A stretch of 55,861 nt of DNA from Nanobdellota archaeon. Its GTDB lineage: Archaea; Nanobdellota; Nanobdellia; Pacearchaeales; GW2011-AR1. A program made the translations under genes and the position numbers. Position 1 is the stretch's first letter; each line of letters starts with the position of its first letter. The notes beneath the pieces were generated by a model, which worked only from the letters and a program-made list of their open reading frames with translations, searched no databases and had not been told where the DNA came from. Of this stretch, positions 3,019 to 55,075 are shown piece after piece. Where the stretch lies: positions 1 through 55,861 of the forward strand of contig DAHXOU010000029.1 in the NCBI GenBank assembly GCA_027364705.1, given 5' to 3'.

Positions 3019-4560
3019 ATGGAAAATCAAGAAAAAAAAGAGGAATTTGATTCTTCTCTCAGACTGATTATTAAATCTTCTCTGTTTGTTTTTCTTGGAG
3101 TAATTTTTTCTAAAATATTCGCTTATCTTTACAGAATTATAATTGCAAGATCTTTTGGCCCCGAAGTATACGGTTTATTCTCCCTCGCCTTAATCGTTTT
3201 CCTGTGGTTTATTTCTCTCTCTGCTCTTGGTTTTTATGATGGTGTGTTAAGATTTATCCCTTTTTATCGAGGACAAAAAAAGATAAATAATATTCGTTAT
3301 CTTTTCAAGTTTTCTTCAATTGTATTGATAATTTCAAGTATCATTTCTGGGATTTTACTTTTTTTGTCTTCAGAAATAATTTCTATTAAACTTTTTCATA
3401 ATTCGGATTTGATAATCTTCTTGAAAGTTTTTAGTTTTATGTTGCCTGCTTATATTTTTGCTTATTTCTTCTTAACTATAATGCAAGCATTTGAAAAAAT
3501 AAAAATTCATTCATTCTTTTCCGATTTTTTAATTAATCTCATTAAACTAATCTTGATCTTATTTTTTATTTTTATCGGGCTTAAAACAAACGCAGTGGTT
3601 TTTTCATACTTCTTTGGAATAATCTGTTTGTTGCTGATTTCTTATTTTTATTCCCGAAAAAAGATTTCAGAAATATTCGAAAAAACTAAACTAAAGAAAA
3701 AAATAAAAGAAGAAGTTAGAAAGAACTTATTCTCTTATTCTGTTCCACTTCTTTTTTTAAGTATACTCTCTAGTCTTTTCCTCTATATTGATTCTTTTGT
3801 AATTGGTTATTTTTTGGATGCAGTACAGGTTGGAATTTACAATGCTGCAATTCCAATAACTGAATTTTTATCTCTCTTTCCTTGTTTATTCATGAGACTT
3901 TTTTTCCCGATGATAACCAGAAAATTCTCTCAGAAAGATATACCTTTTATAAAAAATTTAAGCATTCAAATTGAAAAGTGGATTCTTATGGTGAACCTAC
4001 CCATTTTTGCATTGATGTTTTTATTTTCTGGAGCTTTTATAAACATTCTTTTTGGTCCACAATATATCGCCGCAGAAACTGCCCTGAGGTTTTTATCCGT
4101 GGGTCTTTTCTTTTTTTACTCTATTGCCTTAGTATCAAATAATCTTTTATCTATGCTTGGAAAGTCGAAGATTATTCTTATAGATACAATAGTAACCTCG
4201 GTTGTTAATCTAATCTTATGTTTGATTCTCGTTCCAATTTATGGGATTAATGGTGCCGCATTTGCAACAATGATAATGTACATTGTTCTTAGTCTGGTTT
4301 TTTTCATCCAATCAAGACATTATTTCTCAGGAATGTCTTTGGTTCCGAAGTTTCTTAGGATATTTTTGTCCATACTAATTCCTACAATTTTGCTTGCAAT
4401 AATTAAACAATTCATCAGGGTAACTTTGATTAGCATAATTCTTGAAGGATTAATCTTCTTTTCCCTTTATTTATTCCTCCTCTTCTTTACTAAAAGTTTA
4501 GAAAAAAATGATTTCATGATTTTGAGCTCTATAAAGAAAAAAATATTTCATTCTTCTTGA
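3019..4560 (+). CDS. Wzx/MOP-superfamily oligosaccharide (polysaccharide biosynthesis) flippase
   Basis: 513 aa with about 12-14 predicted TM helices. The N-terminal IIKSSLFVFLGVIFSKIFAYLYRIIIARSFGPEVYG region is typical of polysaccharide-biosynthesis/MOP flippases. Confidence 0.75.
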   Translation: MENQEKKEEFDSSLRLIIKSSLFVFLGVIFSKIFAYLYRIIIARSFGPEVYGLFSLALIVFLWFISLSALGFYDGVLRFIPFYRGQKKINNIRYLFKFSSIVLIISSIISGILLFLSSEIISIKLFHNSDLIIFLKVFSFMLPAYIFAYFFLTIMQAFEKIKIHSFFSDFLINLIKLILILFFIFIGLKTNAVVFSYFFGIICLLLISYFYSRKKISEIFEKTKLKKKIKEEVRKNLFSYSVPLLFLSILSSLFLYIDSFVIGYFLDAVQVGIYNAAIPITEFLSLFPCLFMRLFFPMITRKFSQKDIPFIKNLSIQIEKWILMVNLPIFALMFLFSGAFINILFGPQYIAAETALRFLSVGLFFFYSIALVSNNLLSMLGKSKIILIDTIVTSVVNLILCLILVPIYGINGAAFATMIMYIVLSLVFFIQSRHYFSGMSLVPKFLRIFLSILIPTILLAIIKQFIRVTLISIILEGLIFFSLYLFLLFFTKSLEKNDFMILSSIKKKIFHSS

Positions 4561-4571
4561 TTGACATTAAC

Positions 4572-4585
4572 TTTAAAAAATATAT
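4572..4585 (+). promoter_or_regulatory. TATA-box candidate
   Basis: TTTAAAAAATATAT centred about 25 nt upstream of the ATG at 4600. Confidence 0.4.
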
Positions 4586-4599
4586 CACGATAAATTTTT

Positions 4600-5979
4600 A
4601 TGAAGATCACTCTTTGTATTGCTCCATGGGATATGTGGGAAGATGAAAATTATTCTGTATATCCTCTTGGTTTAGCTTATCTTGGAGCCATGCTGGAAAA
4701 AAATAAATACGAGGTTAATTTGCTTAATCTTTCACTTTGCAAGTTAGAAGATGCTAAAAAAGAAATTATTAAACATCTCAGCGAACAAAAACCCGACTTC
4801 TTTGGTTTTAGTATTCTTTCAAATAGTAGGATTTCTGCAAGAGAATTAATTAAACTAGTAAAAGAATTAAGCCCACAAACAAAAATACTTGCCGGGGGAA
4901 TTCATACTACTTTTATGTATGAACAAATTCTAAATAATTACCCTGTTGATTTTGCTGTTTTGGGGGAGGGAGAGTATACCCTATTGGAGTTACTTGATGC
5001 AATACAAAAGAAAAAATCAATATCTTTCTTGAAAAAAATAAAAGGGATAGCATTCAAATATGAAGGAGAAATTATAAAAACCGAAAATCGGGAGAGAATT
5101 AAAGAATTAGATAGATTACCTCTTCCAAAACACAATTTTTTTAGTGAACAAATAAAAAAAACAAAAACAGCTTATATCATCACTTCTCGAGGCTGTCCTT
5201 TTAGTTGTTCTTTTTGTCCTAGTTCAGCATACTGGGGAAGACATATCATCCAAAGAAGTGCAGAAAATATTCTTGAAGAAATAAAATATTTATTAAATGA
5301 GTTTCCTGACTTGGAATATATTAATTTTTCTGATGATGAGTTCATCTGCAATAATCAAAGGGTGATCTCTTTATGTCAAATGATAATTCGGGAAAAAATA
5401 AAAATTAAATGGAGATGTTTAGGGAGAGTGTCTTCTATAACTGAAGAAGTAATAAAAAATATGAAAGAAGCAGGATGTTGTCAAATTACTTTTGGAGTTG
5501 AGTCTGGTAGCCAGAGAATTCTTGATGGGATTGGAAAAAAAGTAAAAATCTCCCAAATTGTTGATGCATTTAATATCTGTAGAAAATATGAAATTCAAAT
5601 ATCTTGCTTAACTATCGTCGGATTGCCTGGAGAAAATAGACAAAGTGTTAATGAAACAATCGCCCTGTGTAAAAAATTAAAAATTAATACGGAACCTGCA
5701 ATATTAATAATTTTTCCAGGAACAGAAGTTTACAAATTAGCTAAGGAAAAAGGATTTTTGACAGATGAATATTGGCTTGGCGAAGATCTGTGTCCTCTTT
5801 ATTTATGCGAACATCCAAAATGGAAACTATGGTGGTGGTCTTTTAAAACCGGACTTATAACTTATTATCATGATAAGGATGTTAGTGCTTATGACTTTTT
5901 TTATGATAAAATTATAAAAAAATTTAAACCATCTCTTTTTATAAGAATTTTTAAACGATATATAACGGATAAAACCTAA
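4600..5979 (+). CDS. B12-binding-domain (class B) radical SAM enzyme
   Basis: 459 aa. N-terminal Rossmann-like domain (PLGLAYLGAML...ILAGGIHTT...VLGEGE), followed by TSRGCPFSCSFC. The first Cys codon of this CxxxCxxC motif is at 5194. Confidence 0.85.
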   Translation: MKITLCIAPWDMWEDENYSVYPLGLAYLGAMLEKNKYEVNLLNLSLCKLEDAKKEIIKHLSEQKPDFFGFSILSNSRISARELIKLVKELSPQTKILAGGIHTTFMYEQILNNYPVDFAVLGEGEYTLLELLDAIQKKKSISFLKKIKGIAFKYEGEIIKTENRERIKELDRLPLPKHNFFSEQIKKTKTAYIITSRGCPFSCSFCPSSAYWGRHIIQRSAENILEEIKYLLNEFPDLEYINFSDDEFICNNQRVISLCQMIIREKIKIKWRCLGRVSSITEEVIKNMKEAGCCQITFGVESGSQRILDGIGKKVKISQIVDAFNICRKYEIQISCLTIVGLPGENRQSVNETIALCKKLKINTEPAILIIFPGTEVYKLAKEKGFLTDEYWLGEDLCPLYLCEHPKWKLWWWSFKTGLITYYHDKDVSAYDFFYDKIIKKFKPSLFIRIFKRYITDKT

Positions 5980-7687: not shown

Positions 7688-8851
7688 TTAAGGGAAATCA
7701 ACACACATAGGATCTTCTTCTCTTGATTCTAATGTCAGTTCTTCTATTTGTCGAGCATATTCTCCATAGGTGCATCTACCACATTCTTTGTCGACATTTA
7801 TTGATTCAAGAAGTCCTTTATGTTTTTCTGAACCCCAGAAATTTAAAATTTCTTTTGGATTTGGATAATGGCTTCCCAATTTGAATCTTTTTTCAATTCG
7901 ATGGTCTGCACAAACATAAACATTTCCGTCTGCGCAAGCTTGTAACATCAATGGAGAAGAACAGCATTTTTTGAAACTGTGTTTTACTGTAAAATCTGGA
8001 TTGTATTTGTGCATAATTGTGAAAACTCTGAAGTCATCTTTTTCTTCTAACTTGTGACACTCGAAAAATAATTTCTGTATCTCTTCTAAATTATAATTAA
8101 GTTCCATTGCCTGCACAAAATCTTTTCTTTCCAAATCTGCAGGACGTGCATGGAAATCCCTGACCCCAATTTTTTTTGCAAGTTTACACGCATCATAAAC
8201 TTCATGCCAGTTATCTGGTCTGATTAAAAACTTATATGCTATATCTATTTTCGATCCTGTTTTATTTTTTGTTTCCACCAAATCATTTAAATTTTTTACA
8301 ACCTTTTCAAAACAATTGATTCCATGAACTTTTTCAAAAGTTTCTTTTGTTGCAGAATCTAAAGAAACACCGACCCATCTGCAGTTCATCATTTCATTTG
8401 CGATATAGTCATTAATCAAGCTTCCATTTGTTGCAAAAGAACTTTTCATTCCTTTTGAAGCAATATACGACGGTAAATCCCACACATTTTTATTCATCAA
8501 CGGTTCTCCTCCACCACCGATACAAACTCCCCTCACACCCCAGTCCGCACAAAAATCAATAATATCTCTTAAATGTTCTTTCGTCATTTTTCTTTTGTCA
8601 GATGGAACTTCATCCGGATTCAAAATTAAATATCTCTTTGCATTACAATGACCACATTCAAAATTACATAAGTGTGTTGGATCTAATGATAGTTCAATTG
8701 GTGCAGGCAAATCTTTTGTCTCTCCCTTAAACCATTTTGCGATCGGCTTGTAATGACTATCATACCAGATAAGTCCTTTATATGAGTTGAATGAATTATA
8801 CTTTGATTTATCACTCCATTCACTTTTTTTATCTTTCCAATCATCACGCAT
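7688..8851 (-). CDS. Radical SAM enzyme with a C-terminal twitch/SPASM-like Cys region
   Basis: 387 aa. THLCNFECGHCNA (CxxxCxxC) plus GGGGEPL. C-terminal CADGNVYVC...CGRC. Confidence 0.8.
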   Translation of the reverse strand: MRDDWKDKKSEWSDKSKYNSFNSYKGLIWYDSHYKPIAKWFKGETKDLPAPIELSLDPTHLCNFECGHCNAKRYLILNPDEVPSDKRKMTKEHLRDIIDFCADWGVRGVCIGGGGEPLMNKNVWDLPSYIASKGMKSSFATNGSLINDYIANEMMNCRWVGVSLDSATKETFEKVHGINCFEKVVKNLNDLVETKNKTGSKIDIAYKFLIRPDNWHEVYDACKLAKKIGVRDFHARPADLERKDFVQAMELNYNLEEIQKLFFECHKLEEKDDFRVFTIMHKYNPDFTVKHSFKKCCSSPLMLQACADGNVYVCADHRIEKRFKLGSHYPNPKEILNFWGSEKHKGLLESINVDKECGRCTYGEYARQIEELTLESREEDPMCVDFP

Positions 8852-10328
8852 CTTGATTCTCCAGAATTTTTCTTTTTAATTTTATTTTTGTCATTTCTTG
8901 AATATGCTCTTTTGCTCCTTTCCCAAATTTGCTCTCTATCATATTTAAATATTTGGGGCTTGTAAAATATTTTTGAAAGGATTCATCTCTAAATTTTAAT
9001 ACTTCTCCTGCAGATAACTTTTTTGTTGAAAGAGGAAATGTTTCATAGGAATGCTGGGAATATCCAATCCACCCCGGACCCATTTTATCTTCGGGAAGCA
9101 CAATTTTTTCTTCAACACATTGTTTATGCAATTTTGAACCTGGATATGCCATTGCACAATAAAAATTTGCCCATTCGCAGTTTAATTCTTTTGCTAACTC
9201 AAATGTTTTTTGCATACTTTCTTTATCATCTTCTGGTAACCCAAAAATATAATTTGCCGCGACATAAATTCCATTATCTTTCATTTGATTAACTGCTTCA
9301 GTTATTTTTTTACTTCCGAATTTTCCTTTTGAAACATCTTTTCTTACCTCTTCATCACCCGACTCAATTCCAACACCCAGCCAGTTAATTCCTGCTTTTT
9401 TTAATGGAGATAAATATTCTTTTTTTGCAGTATCTATGCGCGCGTAAGACCATATATTTAATCCATAATCTCTCTTGATTAATCCTTCTGTTATCGGGAG
9501 AAAATGATTTGGGTTTAAAACAAATAATTCATCGATTATTTTAATATTTTTAACATCATATTTTTTTACGAGAGTATCAATTTGTTTAAGAACCCATTTC
9601 GGATTCCATTCTCTATATGCAGATTTTCCGAAAGGAGCATTGATACAACAAAATTCACAGTGATAGGGACATCCTAAACTTGTTGAAATTGCTGCATAAT
9701 TTTCTCTAGAATTTAAATCTCCGAGACAATGCCAATTATGTGCCTTATATTTTTTCATAGGTAATAAATCCCATGCAACATCATTAATTTCTTCTGTAAG
9801 GTTTGTTATCAAGTCTGCTCGATTAGTTGAGAAAATTTTATTTTCTTTTTTGTACCAAAGTCCAGGAATTTTTTCAAAATCTTTTTTTTCCAACAAACCT
9901 TGCAAAGTATAGAATCCTTCTCCTTCTCCAATGAAATCACAACTTTCTTCTTCAATGGTTTTTCTCGGTAATGCTGAAGGATGCAAACCTGTTAAAATAA
10001 TTTTTCTTTCAGGATTCTCTTTTTTTATTTCTTCACACAATCTTCTCACACTCGGCATTAGTGCTGTTGATGCCGATGGATGCTGGCCATAAACAACAAT
10101 ATTAGTTAGTTGGGGGTTATATTTTTCAACCTGTTTTGCTACTTCAATAAAATCTAAATTCTCTGCATTTGCGTCGAGAATATCCACATTAAAATTTTTA
10201 TTTCTTATATACCCTGCCATAATTGCTGCCCAAAAAGGAGGTTCTACTGCAGAAAAATCTTTTGATAATTCCTGATAAACTCTTTTTTTTGCTATGGGGT
10301 TTATCAATAACAAATCTAAACCTTTCAT
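8844..10328 (-). CDS. B12-binding-domain (class B) radical SAM enzyme
   Basis: 494 aa. N-terminal Rossmann-like domain (PPFWAAIMAGY...ILTGLHPS...IGEGEG), followed by TSLGCPYHCEFC. 8-nt overlap with the downstream radical SAM gene. Confidence 0.85.
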   Translation of the reverse strand: MKGLDLLLINPIAKKRVYQELSKDFSAVEPPFWAAIMAGYIRNKNFNVDILDANAENLDFIEVAKQVEKYNPQLTNIVVYGQHPSASTALMPSVRRLCEEIKKENPERKIILTGLHPSALPRKTIEEESCDFIGEGEGFYTLQGLLEKKDFEKIPGLWYKKENKIFSTNRADLITNLTEEINDVAWDLLPMKKYKAHNWHCLGDLNSRENYAAISTSLGCPYHCEFCCINAPFGKSAYREWNPKWVLKQIDTLVKKYDVKNIKIIDELFVLNPNHFLPITEGLIKRDYGLNIWSYARIDTAKKEYLSPLKKAGINWLGVGIESGDEEVRKDVSKGKFGSKKITEAVNQMKDNGIYVAANYIFGLPEDDKESMQKTFELAKELNCEWANFYCAMAYPGSKLHKQCVEEKIVLPEDKMGPGWIGYSQHSYETFPLSTKKLSAGEVLKFRDESFQKYFTSPKYLNMIESKFGKGAKEHIQEMTKIKLKRKILENQDA

Positions 10329-10437
10329 TCTCTTTGGAGAAAATTCCTTCTTTTAAAATTTCTGTAGGAATGATAGTTTTTCTAATATATATTTTCATAC
10401 ACAAATCCTTTAAAACCGAAATCTCCTGAAAAAGAAA
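10329..10437. promoter_or_regulatory. Divergent promoter region with two TATA-box candidates
   Basis: TTTTAAAA (10351-10358) lies about 26 nt from the minus-strand start at 10328. CTTTAAAAC (10408-10416) lies about 26 nt from the ATG at 10438. Confidence 0.45.
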
Positions 10438-12243: not shown

Positions 12244-12246
12244 TAA

Positions 12247-14740: not shown

Positions 14741-14767
14741 TCCATCTATATATGGGACCTTCATAAA

Positions 14768-14780
14768 TTATTTAAATTAA
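14768..14780 (+). promoter_or_regulatory. TATA-box candidate
   Basis: TTATTTAAATTAA centred about 24 nt upstream of the ATG at 14798. Confidence 0.4.
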
Positions 14781-14797
14781 TCTCACAAATTTTTTTT

Positions 14798-16988: not shown

Positions 16989-17010
16989 TTATTATTCATT
17001 AAATAATATC

Positions 17011-19924: not shown

Positions 19925-19925
19925 A

Positions 19926-21762: not shown

Positions 21763-21765
21763 ATA

Positions 21766-21778
21766 TTTTTAAATAAAA
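21766..21778 (+). promoter_or_regulatory. TATA-box candidate
   Basis: TTTTTAAATAAAA centred about 25 nt upstream of the ATG at 21795. Confidence 0.4.
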
Positions 21779-21794
21779 TCTTTAATATACTTTT

Positions 21795-24000: not shown

Positions 24001-24001
24001 A

Positions 24002-29388: not shown

Positions 29389-29389
29389 T

Positions 29390-47718: not shown

Positions 47719-48872
47719 TGACTTTTGTAATAATCTGCCTTGACGGTTTTAAGTATGATTATCTTAAACAAACAAAATTTCTTAAGGATCTTGCATCAAA
47801 AAGCATATCTGGAAAATTGCATCACGGAGTTGGTTTTGTTTCTGAATTTTCAGCAATAACAGGGAAAAGTGCAGAACAATTAGGAATAATCACAAATAAT
47901 TTCAGCTTTGGGAAAGGGCTTAAATTTTTTAATTTCTTTAAATTTCTAGATAAACCAAATAATAAAAATTTTCGCCTCGTTCTGAACATACTTTACAACA
48001 TAAAAGAATTTCTTGTGGGAAATAATCAGCCTAAAAGTATATTTAATGTTCCATTAAAATATTCTAAATACTTCAATTTCCCTCTCAAGAAAAATTTCTT
48101 TGAAAAAAATTCATTCAGATTTCCGACAATCTTTGAACTTATGAAGAAAAATAAAAAAATTGTTTCGGGATATATGTGGCCGTTTATTTATGAACATAAT
48201 AAGACTAAGTTGGATTTTCTTAATCTCAGCGATAGCACAGCCAATGCAGACGAAAGAACTTTTCAAAAATCTATAAACCTATTAAAAAAGAAACCAGAAG
48301 TAATGTATATTCATTTTTTTTCCACAGACAATCTTGTTCACAGCTACGGTACCAATTGCAAAAAAACCGACGAATTAGTTAATAAATTGGATAAATATGT
48401 AGAAGAAATAAACAAATACGCAGAATCTCTTTTGATTTTTTCAGACCATGGGATGAAAGATATAGAAGAAACATGGGATGTTTGGAGTTTGATTAAAAAG
48501 ACAAATTTAATTTACGGAAAAGATTACATCATGTTTCTCGATTCAACTCTTGCAAGATTTTGGTTCAGAAATAAAAATTCCGAACAAATTATTAAAAATA
48601 TTCTGAATGATTCTGGAAAGGGAAAAATTCTGAACTTCAAAAATAAAGAGATTCATGACAGTTCGGGAGATTTAATTTTTCAGGTCAATCCCGGTGTTTT
48701 AATTCTTCCTAATTTTTATCAGTCCATTTCAAATAAAGCAATGCATGGTTATTCTGATGATTGCTCCGACGAACACGGAATTTTTTTATTCACTAAAAAA
48801 GGAATAAGACCTTCAAAAAAAGATATAAACATAGAAGAAATTTTTGAATTGGTTCTTTCAAATATCAGTTAA
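47718..48872 (+). CDS. Alkaline-phosphatase-superfamily enzyme, nucleotide pyrophosphatase/phosphodiesterase (NPP)-like
   Basis: 384 aa. N-terminal VIICLDGFKYDYL, FSDHGM, and C-terminal HGYSDD. These parallel the NPP metal-ligand motifs. TAATG coupling to the upstream gene. Confidence 0.65.
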   Translation: MTFVIICLDGFKYDYLKQTKFLKDLASKSISGKLHHGVGFVSEFSAITGKSAEQLGIITNNFSFGKGLKFFNFFKFLDKPNNKNFRLVLNILYNIKEFLVGNNQPKSIFNVPLKYSKYFNFPLKKNFFEKNSFRFPTIFELMKKNKKIVSGYMWPFIYEHNKTKLDFLNLSDSTANADERTFQKSINLLKKKPEVMYIHFFSTDNLVHSYGTNCKKTDELVNKLDKYVEEINKYAESLLIFSDHGMKDIEETWDVWSLIKKTNLIYGKDYIMFLDSTLARFWFRNKNSEQIIKNILNDSGKGKILNFKNKEIHDSSGDLIFQVNPGVLILPNFYQSISNKAMHGYSDDCSDEHGIFLFTKKGIRPSKKDINIEEIFELVLSNIS

Positions 48873-49668
48873 TCCTTTCTACAATAGAACTTATCTTCCA
48901 TCTTTCTGGAAGTTTTGAATGTGCCCTGACAATAAATTTGAAAGGAGAATGAACCATCCTAAGTCTCATTACAGAAAAAAATGTTTTTATCGGAGTCTTC
49001 TTGATATTCAGTTTAGAATTTTTTTTATCTTCCCATATGGTGGGTATAGATTTTATTTTTGCTCTTTCCCTTCGAAGATAAAATAGCAAATCAATATCAA
49101 AACTCCATTCACTTGAACCAAGTTTTGGAACAATCTTTTCGAGAATTTCTCTTCTGAAAATTTTTGCTCCGCACTGCGTATCTCTAAAGTTTATAATAAA
49201 TAAAGACCTTATTACAAAATTTCCAGCCCTTCCGATAAATCTCCTGAATAAAGTTTCTTTTGACCTGATGATACTTTTTCTGTTTCTTCTGTCTGCAATT
49301 GCCCCATCCGAACTTTTGGAATTTATTATCAAATCATAAAAACATTCGGGAGGAGTAGCTTCATCAGCATCAACAAAACCAATCAAATCAAATCTTTGTT
49401 TAATTCCCCACTTAAAACCCTGAATTACTGCAAACCCTTTTCCTCCCTGTTCAAATTCTAAATGGGTTATATTCTTGTTTTTATTTTCCGAGGATTTAAC
49501 AATCTCAAGAGTTCTGTCTTTACATGCATTAAGAACAACTAATATCTTAAAATTTCCTATCTTTTCTTCTTCCTTTAATGAATTAAAGAATTCTCCGTAG
49601 TGTTCAAGGGTTTTTTCTATTCTTTTTTCTTCATTATATGCCGGAATCACAATGCAAACCGTTTTCAT
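48865..49668 (-). CDS. GT2 dolichyl-phosphate hexose synthase-like glycosyltransferase
   Basis: 267 aa. VCIVIPAYNEEKRIEKTLE, VDADEATPP (DxD), and QCGAKIF motifs are typical of Dol-P-Glc/Man synthase-type GT2 enzymes. Confidence 0.8.
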   Translation of the reverse strand: MKTVCIVIPAYNEEKRIEKTLEHYGEFFNSLKEEEKIGNFKILVVLNACKDRTLEIVKSSENKNKNITHLEFEQGGKGFAVIQGFKWGIKQRFDLIGFVDADEATPPECFYDLIINSKSSDGAIADRRNRKSIIRSKETLFRRFIGRAGNFVIRSLFIINFRDTQCGAKIFRREILEKIVPKLGSSEWSFDIDLLFYLRRERAKIKSIPTIWEDKKNSKLNIKKTPIKTFFSVMRLRMVHSPFKFIVRAHSKLPERWKISSIVERIN

Positions 49669-49674
49669 GAATAA

Positions 49675-50637
49675 TCATTTCTCTGCCTGCAATCTTTTTA
49701 AGGATTTAGCGTCCAATTGGATTAGTATTATTGCTATTACCGACGGAATAATTGTACTGAAAAAAAGACTGAGTAATGACATTGAAAATACCTTTGTTGC
49801 CGCAACCCCAAAAAAACCAAACAGACTGATTAATGTTACTTCTCTAGTTCCAAGACCATTAATGCTTATTGGAATCTGAGCTACAATTGTTCCTATTGGA
49901 AGCAGAGCTAAAAAATATATAATCGGTAAATCAATTCCAATCGACAACCCCATAAAATAGGTAGTAATGTAAAGAAGCAGCCAATTAAACAGGTTAACCG
50001 CAAAAATTCCCAGCAAAAATCTTTTTTTTGGAATATCTTCATAAAATGATTCAAATGTCAGCCTGACTTTTTCTTTAAGAGTTTTTGGAATAAACTTGAT
50101 GTATATTACTTTTAGTAAGGCTCTTGTTCTCTCTTTTTTCATAAATATAATTGTAAATAGAAATATAACTCCCAATAAAATCGTAGACCATATAAGAAGC
50201 ATGTCTCCAAACTTATCTCTGAAAACAAATCCGAAAATTATTGTTATAAAAAATAGCGAAGATAAATCGAGAACCTTGTCAAGAACAAAATTACTCGTCC
50301 CCTTTCCGACGTTATTTGTATATCTCTTAAGATAATTTGCTCTAGTGATTGTCCCAATTCTCGAGGGAGTTATGAACCCATAAAAATTACTCATTAAATT
50401 TATCTTAACTGCTTCTCTAAAAGGAATATTTATTTTTTGTTTTCTTGCTATCAAAAACCACTTTAATGTCTGAATAAACAAAGACAAAACTACCAGAGGA
50501 ATTATAATCACTAAAAATAAAAAATTAATATTTTTTAATTCTTCACCTACTTTTGCTAAGTCCAATTTCAATAAAATATAAATGAAAATTCCTACTCCAA
50601 TAATCGGAAGAAATTTTTTCAACCTTTTCCAAATCAT
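49675..50637 (-). CDS. Flippase-like membrane protein (LPG_synthase_TM / UPF0104 family)
   Basis: 320 aa with about 8 TM helices. LKWFLIARKQKINIPFREAVKINLMSNFYGFITPSRIGTITRANYL is typical of this family, which is commonly adjacent to Dol-P/Und-P GT2 genes. Confidence 0.65.
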   Translation of the reverse strand: MIWKRLKKFLPIIGVGIFIYILLKLDLAKVGEELKNINFLFLVIIIPLVVLSLFIQTLKWFLIARKQKINIPFREAVKINLMSNFYGFITPSRIGTITRANYLKRYTNNVGKGTSNFVLDKVLDLSSLFFITIIFGFVFRDKFGDMLLIWSTILLGVIFLFTIIFMKKERTRALLKVIYIKFIPKTLKEKVRLTFESFYEDIPKKRFLLGIFAVNLFNWLLLYITTYFMGLSIGIDLPIIYFLALLPIGTIVAQIPISINGLGTREVTLISLFGFFGVAATKVFSMSLLSLFFSTIIPSVIAIILIQLDAKSLKRLQAEK

Positions 50638-50716: not shown

Positions 50717-51253
50717 ATGCCACAAGCAGTAACTCATTTTTTGATTCCAGTAATCTTGTTAGAACTATTCCGACATTTTTTTGTAAAGAATAAAAAATCT
50801 TTTCCTATTCATTATGTTTTTATCGGAGGTTTAGCCGGCTTAATTCCTGATTTTGACATAGCTCTTTATTATATCCTAAGTTTCTTCGGATTTACTTATC
50901 AAGAAGTTCACAGAACTTTTTTGCATACCTTATTTATTCCATTAATCTTTGTAATTTTATCTTTTCCCGTAGAGAAAATTAAAATAAAAAAATTAGGAGA
51001 GTATCATCTTAAACTGAAAAATATCTTCCTTGTTATTGCATTTGGTGTTTTAATTCACCTTATTCTTGATGCAACTATCTCTGGATTTATAATGCCTTTT
51101 TATCCTTTCTTTCTTTTTCCTGTAGGATTAAATTTAGTTAATCTTTTTCCTCTTCAATGGCAAAATAGCATAATTCCTACTCTTGATGCAATTTTATTAA
51201 TTATTTGGATAATTCACATAGAGCTAAAACATAAAATTTCTGATTTTTTTTAA
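50717..51253 (+). CDS. Membrane-bound metal-dependent hydrolase-like protein (YdjM/DUF457 family)
   Basis: 178 aa. N-terminal THFLIP, GLIPDFD, HRTFLHT, and HLILD motifs across 4-5 TM helices. Confidence 0.65.
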   Translation: MPQAVTHFLIPVILLELFRHFFVKNKKSFPIHYVFIGGLAGLIPDFDIALYYILSFFGFTYQEVHRTFLHTLFIPLIFVILSFPVEKIKIKKLGEYHLKLKNIFLVIAFGVLIHLILDATISGFIMPFYPFFLFPVGLNLVNLFPLQWQNSIIPTLDAILLIIWIIHIELKHKISDFF

Positions 51254-52266
51254 AACATCAAAGAAAATATTTTTAAAATATCTACTTCAAAAATTATAAA
51301 TCCCAAGACGATAATTAGAATTTGGAATAAATTTATCAGATGAACTACATCCTTCTCGTAAACTTTTTTATTTGGCTTAATTTTCTTAAGGAGATATATT
51401 GCTAAATGCTCCAAACCATAAATTTTTTTGTAAGGCATTTCGATGCTTCCATCTTCATTTACTTTTGCGAAACTTTCTTTTTTTAGTCTCCCTCTTGCCT
51501 TGAGAATTGTTTCAAGAATATATGGAATAAAAAAGAAAATTGCAATCTTTTCAATATCTCCTAAAATAGCAATTATTGCAATAAGTGCTCCTACTGGATA
51601 TGTTAAAGTATCTCCGGGAAAAACTTTTGCAGGATGTTTGTTAAAAATATAAAATGCGAATAAACAGGCAACCATTACCAATCCTATTATACTTAGCCAT
51701 CTGTTTCCCATGAGATAGGTTACAACTGAAAGCCCAGATAGAATTAAAATTCCCTGACTTGTTTCTAATTCATTATATCCTGCAAGAAAATTTAATGTTG
51801 AAGCTGCTCCGACAATCCCCAAAGGGATTAATAGGAAAGGATAAATTGCACCTAATTCTATTCCAGCAATTTCAGAATGCCCTGCATTTATTACCACTAA
51901 TGGAAGTGAAGCAAAAATCAAAAATATAATCCTGATTGGTTTATTGAGCCCGATTTTCCATCCAAGAATATCGTCGGTAAAACCAATAAATGAAACAATT
52001 AATATCACACTCATTAAAGAAAATATTTCTATTATATCTTCATATGATTGAAAATAAAAAGTTTTAACTGCAATATAAGTTAACAGCCCTAGAATAAAAC
52101 CCATAATCACACAAACTCCTCCTGCTTCTGCAACTATCCCTCCATTGATTTTGTTCATATCCTTTCCTGCTAATCCAACTTTTTTTGCTCTTTTAATCCA
52201 GATGGGAAGTGCAAATAAAGACAATAAAAATCCAAAAAATATTGGAATAAACAAAAGAATTTGCAT
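51250..52266 (-). CDS. Polyprenyl-phosphate HexNAc-1-phosphate transferase (MraY/WecA/Alg7-AglH-like GPT family)
   Basis: 338 aa with about 10 TM helices. GFTDDILGW Asp-Asp motif and FPGDTLTYPVG. The ATG lies 1 nt after the aglB stop. Confidence 0.8.
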   Translation of the reverse strand: MQILLFIPIFFGFLLSLFALPIWIKRAKKVGLAGKDMNKINGGIVAEAGGVCVIMGFILGLLTYIAVKTFYFQSYEDIIEIFSLMSVILIVSFIGFTDDILGWKIGLNKPIRIIFLIFASLPLVVINAGHSEIAGIELGAIYPFLLIPLGIVGAASTLNFLAGYNELETSQGILILSGLSVVTYLMGNRWLSIIGLVMVACLFAFYIFNKHPAKVFPGDTLTYPVGALIAIIAILGDIEKIAIFFFIPYILETILKARGRLKKESFAKVNEDGSIEMPYKKIYGLEHLAIYLLKKIKPNKKVYEKDVVHLINLFQILIIVLGFIIFEVDILKIFSLMF

Positions 52267-52267
52267 T

Positions 52268-55075
52268 TTAATATTCGCCGGGATTTACATTCGTTAACTC
52301 TTTTGGATATTCTGTATTCAAATAACTTGAATTCAGTTTAATATCCGACGGGTAATTGATATCCCAAATTTTAATTGGTCCCCTAAGTCCGTTGTAATAT
52401 GCAAATTCACCAAGATTAACTCCTTGTCTTTTAATATCAGCAATCACTAAATCATCTTCGCTATGAGCTAATTTGATATAATCTGATTGTTCATTGAATA
52501 AATAATATCTTGCAATTCCAGAATGAATTGTTCGTGTACTTAAATAAAATGCAGCACCTTTCTCACTCACTCCTAATTGACCTTCATTGTTTTCCAGCAA
52601 CGGGAAAATAAAGATTCCTGCTTCTAATCCTGTCTTAAAGTCATACATTTTATTTTTAATATAGACATATCTCAGAGGCATTTCATACTGATTTCCGTTG
52701 TAGATAAAGAATATTGTCGGTTGCAGAGGTTCTCCATCTTTATTTTCTCTCGTCCCTATTGCTGCAACTATTGCTTTTTTTCGTGGTAATAATATTTCTC
52801 TTCCATCTTTCTCTAGAATTATATCTTCATCGACGGGTGTTCCGATTGGATATACGTAAATTGTTTCATTATTTGTTTCTCTTGTTTGAGTACTATCCAT
52901 AAATATATTTGGAATCCATGAATATCTGTCGTATTCTGCATTTGAACCAATACTTGAAAATGCAGCATATTTTCCGATATCTGTTGAATCAATTAATAAG
53001 TGTGTCCCTTCATGAGCATAGAGGAATTCAAGGGCTGCTCTTTCATCGCTCCCAGTTAATACGAGCCTTCCCATAAGATGGTTCCAGTAACCTATTGCAT
53101 TACCTCCGTCTAAAATTGTTGCTCTTTCTCCTATAGTCTGAACCCAATAACCATAATCCCACCAATGTGCAAAAACAGAATCTATAGGAGTATTATCTCT
53201 TACCCAGGACATTGCTTTCTGCCATTGTTGCGTGTAAACATTAGGGGCATAATATTCGGCCATGCCTTTGTCATTCTGATAATAACTCCAGATAGTAAAC
53301 ATAGATGCAAGCAAGATTATTATTGCAAGTATAGCTATAAACACTTTTTTTGTTTCTTCTTTTTCATGGAAATATTTCTGAGAAATTTTTACAATAAGGA
53401 ATGCAACAGCAATTGGGCTGACTGCACCTAAAACCATAACCAGTCTTATTGCCCCTCTTGCAGCAATTATCATCATCGTTAATAACATAAAATACAAAAC
53501 ATAAGAGAAATTAATTTCATCAAAAATAGATAATTTTCCTTCTTTATTTCTTTGAATATACACATATGCAAAAGCTAAAATGAACACAATTAATCCACCA
53601 ACATAAATAAGTATACTTAATCCACTTTCTCCATCGAGAATGCTATCAGCAGAATATTTACTAAATATTAATCCAAGTAGGAAAAGGACATAACTCACCG
53701 TTAAAATTATTTTTTCTTTTTTTGCAAGAGGTTTTATCATATAATTAAATAAGAACACTGCTCCAGCAAAAAATAGCCAAAAGTATAATGGTATGTTGAA
53801 AACCATCGGACCAAACTCATTTGCCCAATCACTTGTAAAATAAGGCTGTTTATTTTCTGCAACAGTTACTCCAAATCTATCTGTAGCAAGAGGTTTAATT
53901 GTATCTGAAATAACATTTTTTATCATGTCCGGGATAAATGAAACTCCAAAAATTATTGAAGTTAAAATAATGATAACAATAAAAGCAATTATAAGGGAAA
54001 TTATCTGGTGAGGAATTTTTATTTTCTTAAATTTTTCATGCAGATTGAAAATCTTTTTCTTAAAAATTAAAAGGTCAATTCCGATTATCAGGAAAACTAT
54101 AAATGACAATCCTGTAGACACAGAACTGATTAAATTAACAACATTGTATCTTGTAGAAAAAGGAATCATCATTAGTGCAGATGAAAATAACCATATTGAA
54201 TAAAAAAGGAATTTTTTAGCATCAAATTTTCCTAAAAGGAATATAAACAAAACGGCAATAGCTATAGTTATGAAAATGAAGACCACTGCTCCCCACGTTA
54301 ATCCTAATAATGCTGTTGAAATTCCTGCTAATGCCCCAAAGATTATACCTTTTGATAATTTCTCCGACGTATAAGCTTCTAAGAAGAAATAAAACGCCAT
54401 AAAAATAAAGAAGAAAGCGACTGATTCTTTTTCTGGAATTCCTGCAATTGATCTTGGAAGAAGTGAAGGAATTAAAACAAAAAATGCTGTTGCTATTAGA
54501 GCAATTATATTGGCAATTTTTTTATCTTCTTTGTAAAATATTTTCCTCGTTAATAAAAAGAAAGCAATTCCTGTAAGAACTGCCATTACAACAGGGAATA
54601 TTATTGCTGCATAAGTTACTGTTAAATCTTTATTCAGGAAAGATAATAAATTGCTTAATGTAGCTATCATATACGGGAGCAACTTCATTTCTGATGCAGT
54701 ATTTATTGAATTACATAAATCTCCTGAACAAATATTTGCTAATGGGGCAGACCTCATTGCATCAAGAACAAATAACTTTCCGTTTTCTACAATATATTTT
54801 GCCCATCTTAGGAATAAGAATGGATCAAGGTCAGGACCAAGTGTCCAGTTGTTTGTTGCAATGTCCCACAATTTTGGTTTTCCAGTAGCAGGATTTATGT
54901 GCATCGGCAGAGTTCTTATATAGACACTTACCATCAAGATTATTGACAATATTGAATAGACTACCCAATTACTTTTCTCTTTTAGAAAATGAATTATCCT
55001 CTTCTTTCTCTTTTCTATTTCTGCACTTGAGAAACTCTCTTCTTTTTTTGTTTCTATTGCACCTAGTTCTGTCAT
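52268..55075 (-). CDS. aglB: Archaeal oligosaccharyltransferase AglB (STT3 family)
   Basis: 935 aa. 13-TM N-terminal domain with GPDLDPFLFLRW (the first DxD-type loop). WWDYGYW is encoded at 53144-53164 on the minus strand. Large soluble C-terminal domain. Confidence 0.9.
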   Translation of the reverse strand: MTELGAIETKKEESFSSAEIEKRKKRIIHFLKEKSNWVVYSILSIILMVSVYIRTLPMHINPATGKPKLWDIATNNWTLGPDLDPFLFLRWAKYIVENGKLFVLDAMRSAPLANICSGDLCNSINTASEMKLLPYMIATLSNLLSFLNKDLTVTYAAIIFPVVMAVLTGIAFFLLTRKIFYKEDKKIANIIALIATAFFVLIPSLLPRSIAGIPEKESVAFFFIFMAFYFFLEAYTSEKLSKGIIFGALAGISTALLGLTWGAVVFIFITIAIAVLFIFLLGKFDAKKFLFYSIWLFSSALMMIPFSTRYNVVNLISSVSTGLSFIVFLIIGIDLLIFKKKIFNLHEKFKKIKIPHQIISLIIAFIVIIILTSIIFGVSFIPDMIKNVISDTIKPLATDRFGVTVAENKQPYFTSDWANEFGPMVFNIPLYFWLFFAGAVFLFNYMIKPLAKKEKIILTVSYVLFLLGLIFSKYSADSILDGESGLSILIYVGGLIVFILAFAYVYIQRNKEGKLSIFDEINFSYVLYFMLLTMMIIAARGAIRLVMVLGAVSPIAVAFLIVKISQKYFHEKEETKKVFIAILAIIILLASMFTIWSYYQNDKGMAEYYAPNVYTQQWQKAMSWVRDNTPIDSVFAHWWDYGYWVQTIGERATILDGGNAIGYWNHLMGRLVLTGSDERAALEFLYAHEGTHLLIDSTDIGKYAAFSSIGSNAEYDRYSWIPNIFMDSTQTRETNNETIYVYPIGTPVDEDIILEKDGREILLPRKKAIVAAIGTRENKDGEPLQPTIFFIYNGNQYEMPLRYVYIKNKMYDFKTGLEAGIFIFPLLENNEGQLGVSEKGAAFYLSTRTIHSGIARYYLFNEQSDYIKLAHSEDDLVIADIKRQGVNLGEFAYYNGLRGPIKIWDINYPSDIKLNSSYLNTEYPKELTNVNPGEY

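Follow-up and report, generated by a model that had tools for sequence, protein, structure and literature searches.

A gene island beside aglB of a Pacearchaeota-like archaeon interleaves sugar-chain assembly genes with twelve predicted radical SAM genes

Foldseek searches with predicted structures (AF2 pLDDT 93 each) of two of the radical SAM enzymes considered here gave OxsB, MgmA, TsrM, CysS, AprD4 and TokK as top matches for a long, B12-domain family (B12rS_4600), and matches to SuiB, DesII, SkfB, anSME, BlsE and BtrN for a short one (tw_25639). The initial annotation had likewise named TsrM, BtrN, DesII and anSME. For an island of such enzymes we found no published description, nor, in the literature library searched, any paper linking aglB with radical SAM, in agreement with the earlier view that such chemistry is undescribed for archaeal protein glycosylation.

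In the window, the whole analysed stretch of 55,861 nucleotides, 52 kb beside AglB hold sugar-chain assembly genes interleaved with twelve radical SAM genes. Forty-four tightly packed genes lie between SecDF/YdjM (90-2984) and AglB/SpoIIM (52268-55855), and encode 12 radical SAM proteins, 13 glycosyltransferase domains, a Wzx flippase, nucleotide-heptose enzymes, three SDRs, two ThDP systems and methyltransferases. Judging from AglB, which is 60-68% identical to homologues in Pacearchaeota/Woesearchaeota MAGs, the host, which has a small genome, is a Pacearchaeota-like DPANN archaeon; the claim of an archaeal glycosylation island ending at aglB is supported. Relatives keep both borders, and the order SecF-SecD-YdjM-like-Wzx is shared with loci L082, L169 and L171 (L numbers denote loci of related genomes, and percentages in the lists are orthologue identities).

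90-986, +: SecF (Pfam SecD_SecF_C), conserved housekeeping left border
983-2515, +: SecD (SecD_SecF_C), same border
2499-2984, +: YdjM-like border membrane protein (weak Pfam YdjM match, E 2.6e-4; four TM), position kept in L082, L169, L171
55181-55855, -: SpoIIM-family membrane protein (59.6 bits), conserved right border, upstream of aglB in 75 of 80 loci

The CxxxCxxC motif occurs in exactly twelve ORFs, matching the count and motif strings first reported, and Pfam Radical_SAM reaches its gathering score in all except ORF 32082 (11 of 12). All are soluble, and they share only 20-32% pairwise identity. They make up 12 of the 44 island genes, compared with four radical SAM ORFs in the 570 kb that flank aglB on its non-island side in 80 related genomes (binomial P between 3e-16 and 6e-9 when the background rate is set at 0.7-3%). 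The neighbourhood survey proposed at the outset found orthologues in glycan loci of relatives, and across the 80 genomes the island side of aglB is enriched about 7-fold in radical SAM genes. Housekeeping roles, the alternative that had been raised against a glycan function, are unsupported, since none of the twelve reached the cutoff of a curated NCBIfam family; synteny with glycosyltransferases is seen in related genomes, the opposite of what that alternative holds.

The twelve fall into six class-B proteins and six short proteins with a C-terminal auxiliary-cluster domain. The six B12-type enzymes first proposed were all recovered: the Pfam B12-binding domain passes in five, and 17011, which has no match in that search, aligns over residues 37-447 to the entire class-B architecture of the 4600-family profile (hhalign 99.6%).

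4600-5979, +: class-B radical SAM, family B12rS_4600 (B12-binding 81, Radical_SAM 95.7 bits); orthologues in glycan loci L082, L085, L169, L170, L171
8844-10328, -: class-B (56.1, 67.2 bits); top NCBIfam match HpnJ, 155 bits vs 577 cutoff; 56-60% in L082, L086
14798-16051, +: class-B (34.4, 69.5 bits), overlapping the downstream GT9 gene (16038) by 14 nt
17011-18849, +: divergent class-B with ~165-aa C-terminal extension (Radical_SAM 38.7 bits); PDB match to OxsB, E 1.3e-7
30570-32132, -: class-B (60.5, 69.4 bits)
35276-36817, +: class-B (51.5, 57.3 bits); 82% in L087 and L095, 67% in aglB locus L073; TTG start, with the in-frame ATG at 35279, used earlier, as alternative

The short proteins had been assigned to the SPASM/twitch type. 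The auxiliary-cluster C-terminus stands, and Pfam SPASM passes in 21795, 25639c, 32082 and 43533, but the cysteines follow the four-Cys BtrN-type twitch spacing C-x16-18-C-x~43-C-x2-3-C and not the seven-Cys SPASM motif. From their sequences, these proteins are better called BtrN-like, single-cluster twitch enzymes. In tw_25639, all of 55 homologues keep C292, C354 and C357, and nearly all keep C310.

7688-8851, -: radical SAM with Cys-rich twitch-like C-terminus (Radical_SAM 70.3 bits; no SPASM profile match); C297/C314/C357/C360 fit the spacing; 65-73% in L082, L086, L087
21795-22847, +: radical SAM, twitch/SPASM domain (Radical_SAM 66.5, SPASM 32.2 bits); twitch Cys 263/281/324/328
24002-24880, +: radical SAM, twitch/SPASM domain (Radical_SAM 38.6 bits); SPASM just under cutoff (20.4 vs 21.5), TIGR04085 passes (29.7 vs 27)
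25639-26721, -: radical SAM, BtrN-like twitch domain, tw_25639 (Radical_SAM 74.1, SPASM 56.4 bits); orthologues in islands L086-L088
32082-33284, +: radical SAM, twitch/SPASM domain (SPASM 36.1 bits; TIGR04317 99 bits, full-length; Radical_SAM under cutoff, 25.3 vs 29.5); 65% in L171, adjoining NTP-GT4; TTG start, alternative in-frame ATG at 32169, used earlier
43533-44645, +: radical SAM, twitch/SPASM domain (Radical_SAM 35.9, SPASM 25.1 bits); 44% in aglB locus L006, with the same gene order

The count of 13 glycosyltransferase domains was exact, family by family: four GT9, three GT4, two GT2, a CgeB-like Glyco_trans_1_2, two GT-C (PMT_2 and AglB) and one GPT.

3019-4560, +: Wzx/AglR-like oligosaccharide flippase (Polysacc_synt 98.5 bits; thirteen TM); 54-55%, adjoining B12-radical SAM in L082 and L169
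6020-7687, +: CgeB-like glycosyltransferase (PF13524, 83.3 bits); 54-58% in L082, L169
13526-14740, +: probable GT-B glycosyltransferase, Gtf3-like, from Gtf3_C in its 40% orthologue in L082 (no Pfam match itself; weak matches to NF007325 sugar transferase, E 5.7e-5, and PDB Glucosyltransferase 3, E 0.22)
16038-16988, +: GT9 (38.7 bits); 58% in L082
20881-21762, +: GT9 (27.9 bits)
27812-28897, +: GT4 (Glycos_transf_1 82.8 bits); 47% in L086
29390-30607, -: GT4 (127.6 bits); 54% in L171
33275-35164, -: sugar-1-P nucleotidyltransferase-GT4 fusion (NTP_transferase 88.9, Glycos_transf_1 62 bits); 56% in L171
36857-38755, +: GT9-GT2 fusion (Glyco_transf_9 37.5, Glycos_transf_2 71.3 bits); 65% in aglB locus L046
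40327-41934, +: GT-C (PMT_2/ArnT-like; PMT_2 54.9 bits; ten TM), predicted Dol-P-sugar-dependent; best-match homologues in 23 ORFs of aglB loci
42395-43453, -: GT9 (62.9 bits)
48865-49668, -: GT2, candidate Dol-P-sugar synthase (AglD/DPM-like; 63.4 bits); orthologues of at least 40% beside aglB in 41 loci
49675-50637, -: LPG_synthase_TM "flippase-like" membrane protein (PF03706, 144.9 bits; eight TM); orthologues in 22 aglB loci
50717-51253, +: second YdjM-like membrane protein (51.9 bits)
51250-52266, -: GPT, polyprenyl-P HexNAc-1-P transferase, AglH/WecA family (Glycos_transf_4 91.3 bits); adjoins aglB in 74 of 80 related loci
52268-55075, -: AglB oligosaccharyltransferase (STT3 45.6, STT3-PglB_core 25.1 bits; 14 TM), WWDYG at residue 638

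Pfam also confirmed the three SDRs, two ThDP (TPP) systems, two methyltransferases and Wzx first listed. The heptose claim fared less evenly: GmhB is present, as are four GT9 domains and an HldE-like pair of kinase and adenylyltransferase, but GmhA and a convincing HldD are missing from the contig. The ALS-like carboligase (10438) is closest to YerE-like branched-sugar carboligases, with JanthE (8RPH, YerE-like) as best PDB match at 321 bits and true ALS at ≤273.

38752-39294, +: GmhB-type heptose-1,7-bisphosphate phosphatase (TIGR00213, 157.4 vs 149.6 cutoff)
39288-40229, -: HldE domain-I-like heptose-7-P kinase (TIGR02198, 317 vs 345 cutoff)
41921-42406, +: HldE domain-II-like heptose-1-P nucleotidyltransferase (TIGR02199, 141.6 vs 181.5 cutoff)
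10438-12243, +: YerE-like ThDP carboligase, ALS-fold (TPP_enzyme N/M/C); 76% in L169
12247-13431, -: class I/II PLP aminotransferase forming a pair with the carboligase (Aminotran_1_2 234 bits); 79% in L169, there too beside the ThDP enzyme
18842-19924, +: Old-yellow-enzyme-type flavin oxidoreductase (Oxidored_FMN 215 bits)
19926-20888, +: SDR epimerase/dehydratase (Epimerase 47.5 bits)
22847-23476, +: split ThDP enzyme, E1-alpha-like half (E1_dh 70.1 bits)
23476-24000, +: its Transket_pyr half (39.6 bits); both halves (22847-24000) 37-47% in L082
24870-25658, -: polysaccharide deacetylase (Polysacc_deac_1 38.5 bits); 60-64%, close to radical SAM genes in L086-L088 and L169
26831-27781, +: SDR NDP-sugar epimerase/dehydratase (Epimerase 121.7 bits)
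28894-29451, -: class I SAM methyltransferase (Methyltransf_11 36.4 bits); orthologues of at least 40% in 10 of the loci sampled
44642-45637, +: SDR, HpnA-like sugar epimerase/reductase (Epimerase 137.3 bits; TIGR03466 138.7 bits, under cutoff)
45606-46412, +: class I SAM methyltransferase (Methyltransf_11 40.3 bits)
46414-47718, +: conserved protein that usually accompanies the phosphodiesterase (no match in Pfam, NCBIfam or the PDB; best-match homologues in 12 aglB-locus ORFs)
47718-48872, +: type I phosphodiesterase/alkaline-phosphatase-superfamily enzyme (Phosphodiest 70.8 bits)

Taken together, the gene content is best read as a hypervariable, modular surface/N-glycan island with predicted radical SAM sugar tailoring. 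The similar arrangement in related archaea suggests that archaeal surface sugars undergo radical chemistry not yet described, which might include C-methylation, oxidation, epimerisation or carbocycle formation; we infer, in the same conditional sense, that the product may be N-linked. The initial interpretation survives in its core, an aglB-linked DPANN island with non-housekeeping radical SAM enzymes, but not in the SPASM label or a complete heptose set. The island is no one-off but a recurrent, modular and hypervariable locus of Pacearchaeota-like archaea: seven of the twelve radical SAM families have orthologues (44-82%) in other glycan loci, and in one compact cluster an orthologue sits between a GT9 and a GT2 gene.

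The stretch from 3019 to 55075 is, in our reading, the main surface-glycan assembly locus of this archaeon, with an interior that would be a mosaic of exchangeable modules and with radical SAM (rSAM) enzymes that would tailor its sugars; we give this reading a probability of about 0.65. Mechanical ORF calling yielded 48 tightly packed genes in the window, a whole contig, where the largest intergenic gap is 111 nt, the GC content is ~30% overall and uniform along the length (28-33%), and neither tRNA genes nor Rfam matches were found. Pfam and NCBIfam together identify 42 of the 44 genes of the island. The genes on which the argument turns are the following.

90-2984, SecF, SecD and YdjM-like genes, left of the island
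3019, plus strand, Wzx flippase
4600, plus strand, class-B rSAM
7688, minus strand (7688c), short rSAM
8844, minus strand (8844c), class-B rSAM
10438, plus strand, ThDP enzyme
14798, plus strand, class-B rSAM
17011, plus strand, class-B rSAM
21795, plus strand, short rSAM
24002, plus strand, short rSAM
25639, minus strand (25639c), short rSAM
30570, minus strand (30570c), class-B rSAM
32082, plus strand, short rSAM (TTG start; alternative ATG at 32169)
35276, plus strand, class-B rSAM (TTG start; alternative ATG at 35279)
38752, plus strand, GmhB
39288, minus strand (39288c), HldE domain-I-like kinase
41921, plus strand, HldE domain-II-like nucleotidyltransferase
43533, plus strand, short rSAM
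44642, plus strand, SDR
48865, minus strand (48865c), GT2
51250, minus strand (51250c), GPT
52268, minus strand (52268c), AglB
55181, minus strand (55181c), SpoIIM, right of the island

The inventory of the initial annotation was borne out: the Pfam/NCBIfam scan of the window ORFs gave exactly the 13 glycosyltransferase (GT) domains counted there, and Pfam found the three SDRs, two ThDP systems, methyltransferases (two), Wzx, GPT and AglB. At 13526-24880, spacings of -14 to +57 nt imply that eleven co-directional genes, among which GT, rSAM, SDR and ThDP genes alternate, are co-transcribed. AglB matches Pfam STT3 and STT3-PglB_core, has 14 predicted TM segments and carries the WWDYG motif at residue 638. 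The gene for GPT adjoins aglB, and eleven more GT domains lie in the island beyond those of GPT and AglB. Like the agl clusters of Haloferax volcanii (aglB-aglJ/P/Q/E/R/F/I/G/M) and Methanococcus, the island clusters a priming transferase, soluble GTs and an AglR-like Wzx flippase with AglB, has a Dol-P-sugar GT2 and an external GT-C step of AglD/AglS type, and varies in content among relatives. In the agl clusters characterised so far, sugar tailoring is, to our knowledge, the work of ordinary SAM methyltransferases, dehydrogenases and the like, and none is described with rSAM enzymes in the literature searched; the island differs from them in its share of rSAM genes (27%), in its GT9 and heptose genes and in its ThDP carboligases.

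Relatives of this AglB with 60-68% identity come from MAGs labelled Pacearchaeota, Woesearchaeota or Nanoarchaeota, which places the source of the window among the DPANN archaea of this group; an exact-protein search with AglB gave a 3.3-kb Logan contig only. A marine Pacearchaeota cluster with Tara Oceans sequences among its members contains the relative with 64% identity to ORF 4600. The order SpoIIM-AglB-GPT is kept in nearly all of 80 related aglB loci, where it is usually followed by GT2 and/or LPG_synthase_TM, and past this core the gene content differs from locus to locus. At the left end, the order SecF-SecD-YdjM-like-Wzx is common to three related loci (L082, L169, and L171). Since the gene order is conserved on both flanks whereas the content in between varies, the island is a hypervariable interior between two conserved chromosomal anchors. 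A mobile island was rejected, as Pfam finds no integrase or transposase domains in the window ORFs, there is no tRNA gene or Rfam match in the window, and the GC content is uniform. Genes for small YdjM-like membrane proteins at 2499-2984 (after SecD) and 50717-51253 (in the GPT/LPG_synthase_TM interval) flank most of the island and are found again at both positions in relatives.

Exactly twelve ORFs carry the CxxxCxxC motif, with the very motif strings first reported for them. Pfam Radical_SAM is found in all twelve and exceeds the gathering score in eleven; the remaining one, ORF 32082 (25.3 vs a cutoff of 29.5), nevertheless passes the SPASM model and aligns with TIGR04317 over its full length. 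With pairwise identities of only 20-32%, the twelve represent distinct lineages rather than recent duplicates or an amplification. The N-terminal B12-type domain ascribed to six of them withstood the profile searches: PF02310 passes in 4600, 8844c, 14798, 30570c and 35276, and 17011, which has no Pfam B12 match, aligns with the whole class-B architecture over residues 37-447 at 99.6% (hhalign, profile of 54 homologues of 4600). These class-B enzymes are candidate cobalamin users; AprD4, their best overall match by TM-score, has a related N-terminal domain and is not known to use cobalamin. Nor is B12 synthesis, as far as we know, expected in DPANN archaea. The gene for the divergent 612-aa class-B enzyme 17011 is overlapped by 8 nt by one for an Old-Yellow-Enzyme flavin oxidoreductase (18842-19924), which has no homologue in any sampled related locus and might serve as a dedicated reductase partner or as an enone reductase acting on a sugar intermediate.

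The six short rSAMs had been assigned C-terminal regions of SPASM/twitch type, and the twitch part of this assignment stood while the full SPASM part did not. SPASM-type profile matches (PF13186/TIGR04085) pass in five of the six (PF13186 in 21795, 25639c, 32082, and 43533; 24002 falls just under the Pfam cutoff but passes TIGR04085). All six, however, share the spacing C-x16-18-C-x~43-C-x2-3-C, which is the four-Cys, BtrN-type half-motif, and none has the seven-Cys SPASM motif for two auxiliary [4Fe-4S] clusters. In 25639c, three of these cysteines (C292, C354, and C357) are invariant in 55 homologues and the fourth, C310, is almost so, and BtrN aligns to residues 290-360 with an E value of 1e-6 (PDB sequence match). 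The short rSAMs are therefore predicted to carry a single-cluster twitch domain of BtrN/MoaA type.

No member of the twelve reaches the curated cutoff of any NCBIfam functional family (Tes, MoaA, HpnJ, BchE, MgmA, anSME, NirJ/Ahb, PqqE, viperin, and MiaB/RimO included). At best they score 70-190 bits, where the cutoffs lie at 180-850: the class-B enzymes score 70-190 bits on the BchE, HpnJ, PhpK, TIGR04072 and MgmA models (cutoffs 360-750), and the short ones 50-119 bits on the TIGR04317, NirJ, MoaA, PqqE and viperin models (cutoffs 180-650). MoaA scores are at most 59 vs 284. Housekeeping and cofactor families were rejected on these scans, and the rSAM genes are syntenic with GT genes in relatives, the reverse of what the initial annotation named as refuting its reading. 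AlphaFold (AF2) models of 25639c and 4600 (pLDDT 93) confirm the predicted rSAM classes of both. The PDB fold neighbours of 25639c are SuiB, DesII, CteB, SkfB, anSME, BlsE, viperin and BtrN, and the model of 4600 superposes on OxsB, MgmA (9CCB), TsrM, CysS, AprD4 and TokK. These neighbours, at TM 0.6-0.73, include sugar-acting enzymes (DesII, BlsE, BtrN, and AprD4), but they mix sugar- or small-molecule-acting rSAMs with peptide-acting ones (SuiB, CteB, SkfB, anSME, and MgmA), so the fold does not fix the substrate class. The rSAMs of antibiotic sugar pathways (class B: GenK, Fom3, and AprD4; twitch or other: BtrN, DesII, and BlsE) are like those of the island in domain architecture, in fold within this TM range, in the BtrN-like Cys spacing, and in the location of their genes among NDP-sugar enzymes and glycosyltransferases. 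They differ in that sequence identity is only 13-24% with no family cutoff reached, and in that they serve secondary-metabolite clusters, whereas here twelve enzymes lie in an archaeal cell-surface glycan locus.

Gene neighbourhoods in related loci argue for a role with sugars. Orthologues with 44-82% identity were found in the sampled loci for seven of the twelve rSAM families (4600, 7688c, 8844c, 25639c, 32082, 35276, and 43533), and rSAM-GT synteny was seen repeatedly in independent assemblies from ENA, JGI, NCBI and Logan. The 4600 family comprises more than 100 clusters at 40-75% identity, is from DPANN wherever a source is named, and lies in glycan loci in five of the six distinct contexts sampled.

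Gene neighbourhoods of ORF 4600 homologues in related loci (first percentage, identity to 4600; others, identity to the corresponding island gene; B12rS, class-B rSAM; MT, methyltransferase)
L082, 64%: SecF-SecD-YdjM-B12rS-Wzx-B12rS-CgeB-transketolase-7688 rSAM (68%)-NUDIX-8844 B12rS (60%)-E1 split-Gtf3-like (40%)-GT9 (58%); L083 is another assembly of this region and is not counted as a separate context
L169, 61%: SecDF-Wzx-CgeB-ThDP (76%)-aminotransferase (79%)-B12rS-3 SDR-DegT-B12rS-deacetylase-B12rS-MT
L171, 43%: SecDF-Wzx-B12rS-GT9-GT2-GT4 (54%)-SDR-twitch 32082 (65%)-NTP/GT4 (56%)-PMT_2
L170, 42%: compact 14-kb GPT-AglB-epimerase-MT-GT4x3-GT9-x-x-B12rS-GT2-MT-Wzx-SpoIIM
L085, 42%: DegT, SDR, split ThDP, SDR, MT, SDR, DegT, GT, GT10, B12rS, GT2, ManC, PGM
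L084:10001-11401, 50%: a lone gene flanked by those for ribosomal protein L31e and DNA-alkylation/TruB (651-kb JGI contig)

The single counter-example to the GT association is L084, with no glycan genes within 10 kb of the 4600 homologue, and L170 in effect amounts to a pared-down island that includes the rSAM. Members of the 25639 family form a compact group of more than 110 clusters at 53-83% identity, beyond which identity falls to 42%; the family lies in rSAM-rich glycan islands in all three contexts sampled (L086-L088), where the module GT4-twitch rSAM-MT-deacetylase is conserved; L086 and L087 hold six rSAMs in 17 kb each. L087 (GCA_040961015.1) also encodes, at 9695-12742 within its rSAM-rich island, a 1015-aa fusion of CoA_binding_3, Polysacc_synt_2 (4,6-dehydratase) and aminotransferase domains that looks like a bacillosamine-type pathway in one polypeptide. 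A metagenome scan with a 25639-family profile is of limited value as a synteny survey, as its back-translated patterns are generic rSAM motifs and hence retrieved distant homologues (21-36% identity); the closest of these (L089, L090, L095, L100, L102, and L112) are the ones in GT contexts, and the rest include unrelated tandem rSAM arrays. On two metagenome contigs (L126 and L136), six to eight twitch/SPASM rSAM genes stand in tandem, 25-29% identical to 25639c, with no glycan genes around the array on the L136 contig, and these look like a different, unexplained system.

The association extends to aglB itself. Across the 80 related aglB loci, 27 rSAM ORFs were counted in 578 kb on the island side of aglB vs 4 in 570 kb on the other side, in 20 vs 3 loci, which is a ~7-fold enrichment. 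Taking the latter flank as background (0.7%), or rates up to 3%, the presence of rSAMs in 12 of the 44 island genes has a binomial P of 3e-16 to 6e-9. Loci with an rSAM rise to 24 of 80 when a B12-rSAM-like subfamily with the variant motif CWWGKCKFC (Cx4Cx2C) is included. Proteins of this subfamily (~490 aa, e.g. L004:14645-16123) are 25-29% identical to ORF 4600 and are not present in the window; their genes lie near the Dol-P-type GT2 and LPG_synthase_TM genes in 15 of the 80 loci (L002, L004, L005, L007-L010, L013-L016, L018, L067, L069, and L072), in several of them, e.g. L004, L005 and L007, directly between the two. One aglB locus on a 295-kb contig (L050, DAIQOR010000001.1) has the order SpoIIM-AglB-GPT-GT2-MT-B12rSAM in the Pacearchaeota arrangement with a 45% identical AglB, and its source, labelled 'bacterium isolate CTOTU11692', is probably a mislabelled archaeal MAG. 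Another (L051) has two adjacent best AglB matches (47% and 45%), which is a tandem aglB duplication or a split gene.

The heptose glycan proposed in the initial annotation is partly backed by the genes of the island. ORF 38752 passes the GmhB model TIGR00213 (157.4 vs 149.6), 39288c and 41921 stay just under the cutoffs for HldE domain I (317 vs 345) and domain II (141.6 vs 181.5), and four GT9 (PF01075) matches, with heptose as a putative donor, score 27.9-62.9 bits vs a cutoff of 22. GmhA is lacking from the window, where neither a SIS-domain ORF (Pfam) nor a tblastn match to an approximate E. coli GmhA query was found, and the contig has no convincing HldD. The same query matches a GmhA adjoining GmhB in L095, and the GmhA gene may lie elsewhere in the genome. 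The island resembles the ADP-heptose pathway of the LPS inner core in its GmhB, its separate HldE-like kinase and nucleotidyltransferase genes and its four GT9 enzymes, and differs from it in these gaps, in the below-cutoff HldE-like scores, and in that its acceptor cannot be lipid A-Kdo.

In yersiniose synthesis, the two-carbon branch is attached by YerE, which is encoded in the Yersinia O-antigen cluster and acts on a 4-keto sugar nucleotide. The closest match of ORF 10438 is JanthE (8RPH, 321 bits vs at most 273 for acetolactate synthases), a YerE-like ThDP enzyme (PMC12188165), and the ORF falls below the cutoff of every NCBIfam acetolactate synthase model. It shares with YerE a place among SDRs and glycosyltransferases, and differs in its archaeal host and in its pairing with a class I/II aminotransferase; the two genes recur jointly in L169 (76% and 79%). 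A true acetolactate synthase is disfavoured, given the better score of the YerE-like match and the presence of the gene among glycan genes in both L169 and L085. In L082 and L086, the 7688/8844 rSAM pair adjoins a split E1/transketolase-like ThDP enzyme. There, a full split transketolase (Transketolase_N, Transket_pyr, and Transketolase_C; L082:13054-14839 and L086:15652-17056) stands beside the 7688/8844 orthologues at the place where the window has the YerE-like enzyme; a transketolase may provide the sedoheptulose-7-P needed for heptoses or lengthen sugar chains. Taken together, these heptose and ThDP genes, the three SDRs, the deacetylase, the NTP-transferase-GT4 fusion and the two methyltransferases make up the toolkit of unusual-sugar biosynthesis.

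From these genes we infer the following route. GPT (51250c) would prime dolichyl-phosphate, and cytoplasmic GT4, GT9, GT2 and CgeB-like transferases would lengthen the lipid-linked oligosaccharide from NDP-sugars made or modified in situ. The making and modifying of these donors would involve the NTP-transferase-GT4 fusion, the GmhB/HldE-like enzymes, the three SDRs, the YerE-like carboligase with its aminotransferase, the split E1-like ThDP enzyme, the deacetylase and the two SAM methyltransferases. The twelve soluble rSAMs would remove hydrogen from carbons of the sugars, acting on NDP-sugars or on the glycan once it is lipid-linked. For the six class-B enzymes, C-methylation as in GenK and Fom3 or AprD4-type dehydration/deoxygenation seems most likely, and for the six twitch-type enzymes, oxidation, deamination, epimerisation or decarboxylation as in BtrN, DesII and BlsE. 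Each rSAM appears to pair with neighbouring transferases in a putative 'activate - modify - transfer' cassette. Wzx would then flip the glycan, GT2 (48865c), the LPG_synthase_TM protein and the PMT_2 GT-C enzyme would add Dol-P-borne sugars outside the cell, a step for which H. volcanii AglD/AglS offers an analogue, and AglB would move the glycan onto Asn of surface proteins.

For the last step, that the product of the island is N-linked, we would give slightly less than even odds. The 13 GT domains may serve more than one glycoconjugate, so the adjacency of aglB is no proof that all products are N-linked. The strongest of the alternatives keeps the rSAM sugar tailoring but makes the product mostly something other than an N-glycan, such as a heptose lipoglycan or LPS-core-like glycolipid, a capsule or EPS, or an O-glycan made via PMT_2, with aglB merely at the border. 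We consider it the less probable account of the whole, although for part of the island a non-N-linked glycoconjugate is quite possible. GT9 and ADP-heptose genes, which Pfam and NCBIfam find in the island, are hallmarks of the bacterial LPS core, a PMT_2 GT-C enzyme is present, and 13 GT domains in 52 kb are more than one N-glycan requires. Conservation of the SecDF-side modules (Wzx-B12rS-CgeB) is seen at other loci than that of the aglB-side core (GPT-GT2-LPGs). L170, on the other hand, joins GT9, B12-rSAM, Wzx, GPT and AglB in a single 14-kb unit, and the window has one priming transferase (GPT) and one Wzx with no Wzy, Wzz or ABC exporter.

It is unlikely that the rSAMs act on lipids instead, be it the dolichol carrier, host-derived membrane lipids or glycolipid head groups, in the manner of Tes, Grs, GDGT methylase, HpnJ or calditol synthase. 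Such a role would fit the top NCBIfam families of several class-B enzymes, which are lipid-related (HpnJ, 155-172 bits; TIGR04072, 'lipid biosynthesis B12-binding/radical SAM', up to 157; HpnR), the below-cutoff resemblance of SDR 44642 to HpnA, the presence of GDGT-MAS among the fold and sequence neighbours of 25639c, and the scavenging of host lipids by DPANN archaea. These lipid-family scores, however, are far under the curated cutoffs (Tes, 29-31 vs 450; HpnJ, at most 172 vs 577), all twelve rSAMs lack TM segments, and the genes conserved around theirs encode NDP-sugar enzymes and glycosyltransferases rather than isoprenoid enzymes. HpnJ itself, which forms the hopanoid cyclitol ether, acts on the sugar moiety and, like the calditol synthase Cds, turns a lipid-linked sugar into a carbocycle. 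Among curated families it gives 8844c its highest score, in an alignment over nearly the whole length, but that score is 155 bits against the cutoff of 577, and no hopanoid or GDGT genes are near the island rSAMs.

Still more doubtful is a role in modifying proteins or peptides, as RiPP-like maturases or as modifiers of glycosylated S-layer or pilin proteins. Many SPASM/twitch rSAMs are peptide maturases, the top Foldseek matches of 25639c include SuiB, CteB, SkfB and anSME, and 4600 resembles the protein methylase MgmA. A RiPP cluster was nevertheless rejected as the main reading, because the intergenic gaps leave no room for a precursor gene and Pfam detects no RRE/PqqD domain, protease or exporter in the window ORFs. 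The short rSAMs, besides, have the single-cluster twitch domain rather than full SPASM, and the genes conserved alongside are those for GTs, SDRs, nucleotidyltransferases and a deacetylase. Incidental clustering of housekeeping, cofactor or RNA-modification enzymes, of viperin-like anti-phage genes in a variable region, or by assembly chimera is effectively excluded, since against some generic matches (PADLOC pVip at 30-75 bits, a weak core similarity with a twitch domain in place of the viperin C-terminus; MoaA, MiaB and NirJ-type families) and the lone homologue in L084 stand the missed NCBIfam cutoffs, the rSAM-GT synteny and the ~7-fold enrichment on the island side of aglB, and a uniform GC content with both ends and the middle modules syntenic with independent assemblies.

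Archaeal N-glycans are the most chemically diverse known, and we know of no radical SAM enzyme tied to their synthesis. Returning to the reading of the island as a glycan locus with rSAM sugar tailoring, we tentatively extend it, with rather less confidence than a coin toss would warrant, to Pacearchaeota-type DPANN in general: their AglB-transferred N-glycans would be decorated by a modular, fast-shuffled toolkit of up to a dozen rSAMs that yields C-methylated, deoxygenated, branched-chain or carbocyclic sugars, including modified heptoses, new to protein glycans. If so, the glycans might form a hypervariable 'glycan code' mediating host attachment or virus evasion, and the cells would depend on externally supplied cobalamin for building their surface. 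The island in itself suggests that ultra-small host-dependent archaea devote much DNA to the chemistry of surface sugars, at a probable cost in scavenged B12, iron-sulfur clusters and SAM, which bears on DPANN host recognition and virus evasion.

In the literature searched, no report joins radical SAM, aglB, N-glycosylation and archaea; aglB and radical SAM are mentioned together on Pectobacterium only, and DPANN and radical SAM with glycosyltransferase or cell surface gave nothing relevant. A 2026 review of B12-dependent rSAM enzymes mentions neither glycans, polysaccharides nor archaea. An uncharacterised rSAM gene is listed for a Campylobacter capsule cluster, so isolated rSAMs in bacterial surface-glycan loci are already known of. 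What appears to be new, as a hypothesis-generating finding, is the combination of an agl-type glycan cluster with a battery of candidate rSAM tailoring enzymes, recurrent in a DPANN lineage. For rSAM enzymology, cell-surface glycans become a new candidate substrate class, and at least seven rSAM families are defined by 44-82% orthologues in independent MAGs, with glycosyltransferases, nucleotidyltransferases and a deacetylase as conserved partners, so that the putative cassettes are concrete and clonable.

Two island genes stand apart from these assignments. ORF 13526 gave nothing significant in sequence and PDB searches. For ORF 46414, which encodes a 434-aa protein with one predicted TM segment, Pfam, NCBIfam and the PDB gave no match; the gene is translationally coupled to one for a type I phosphodiesterase of the alkaline-phosphatase superfamily (pair at 46414-48872). 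Homologues of both recur near aglB, often paired (e.g. L005-L009, L016, and L038), and the pair may add or remove phospho-substituents of the glycan.
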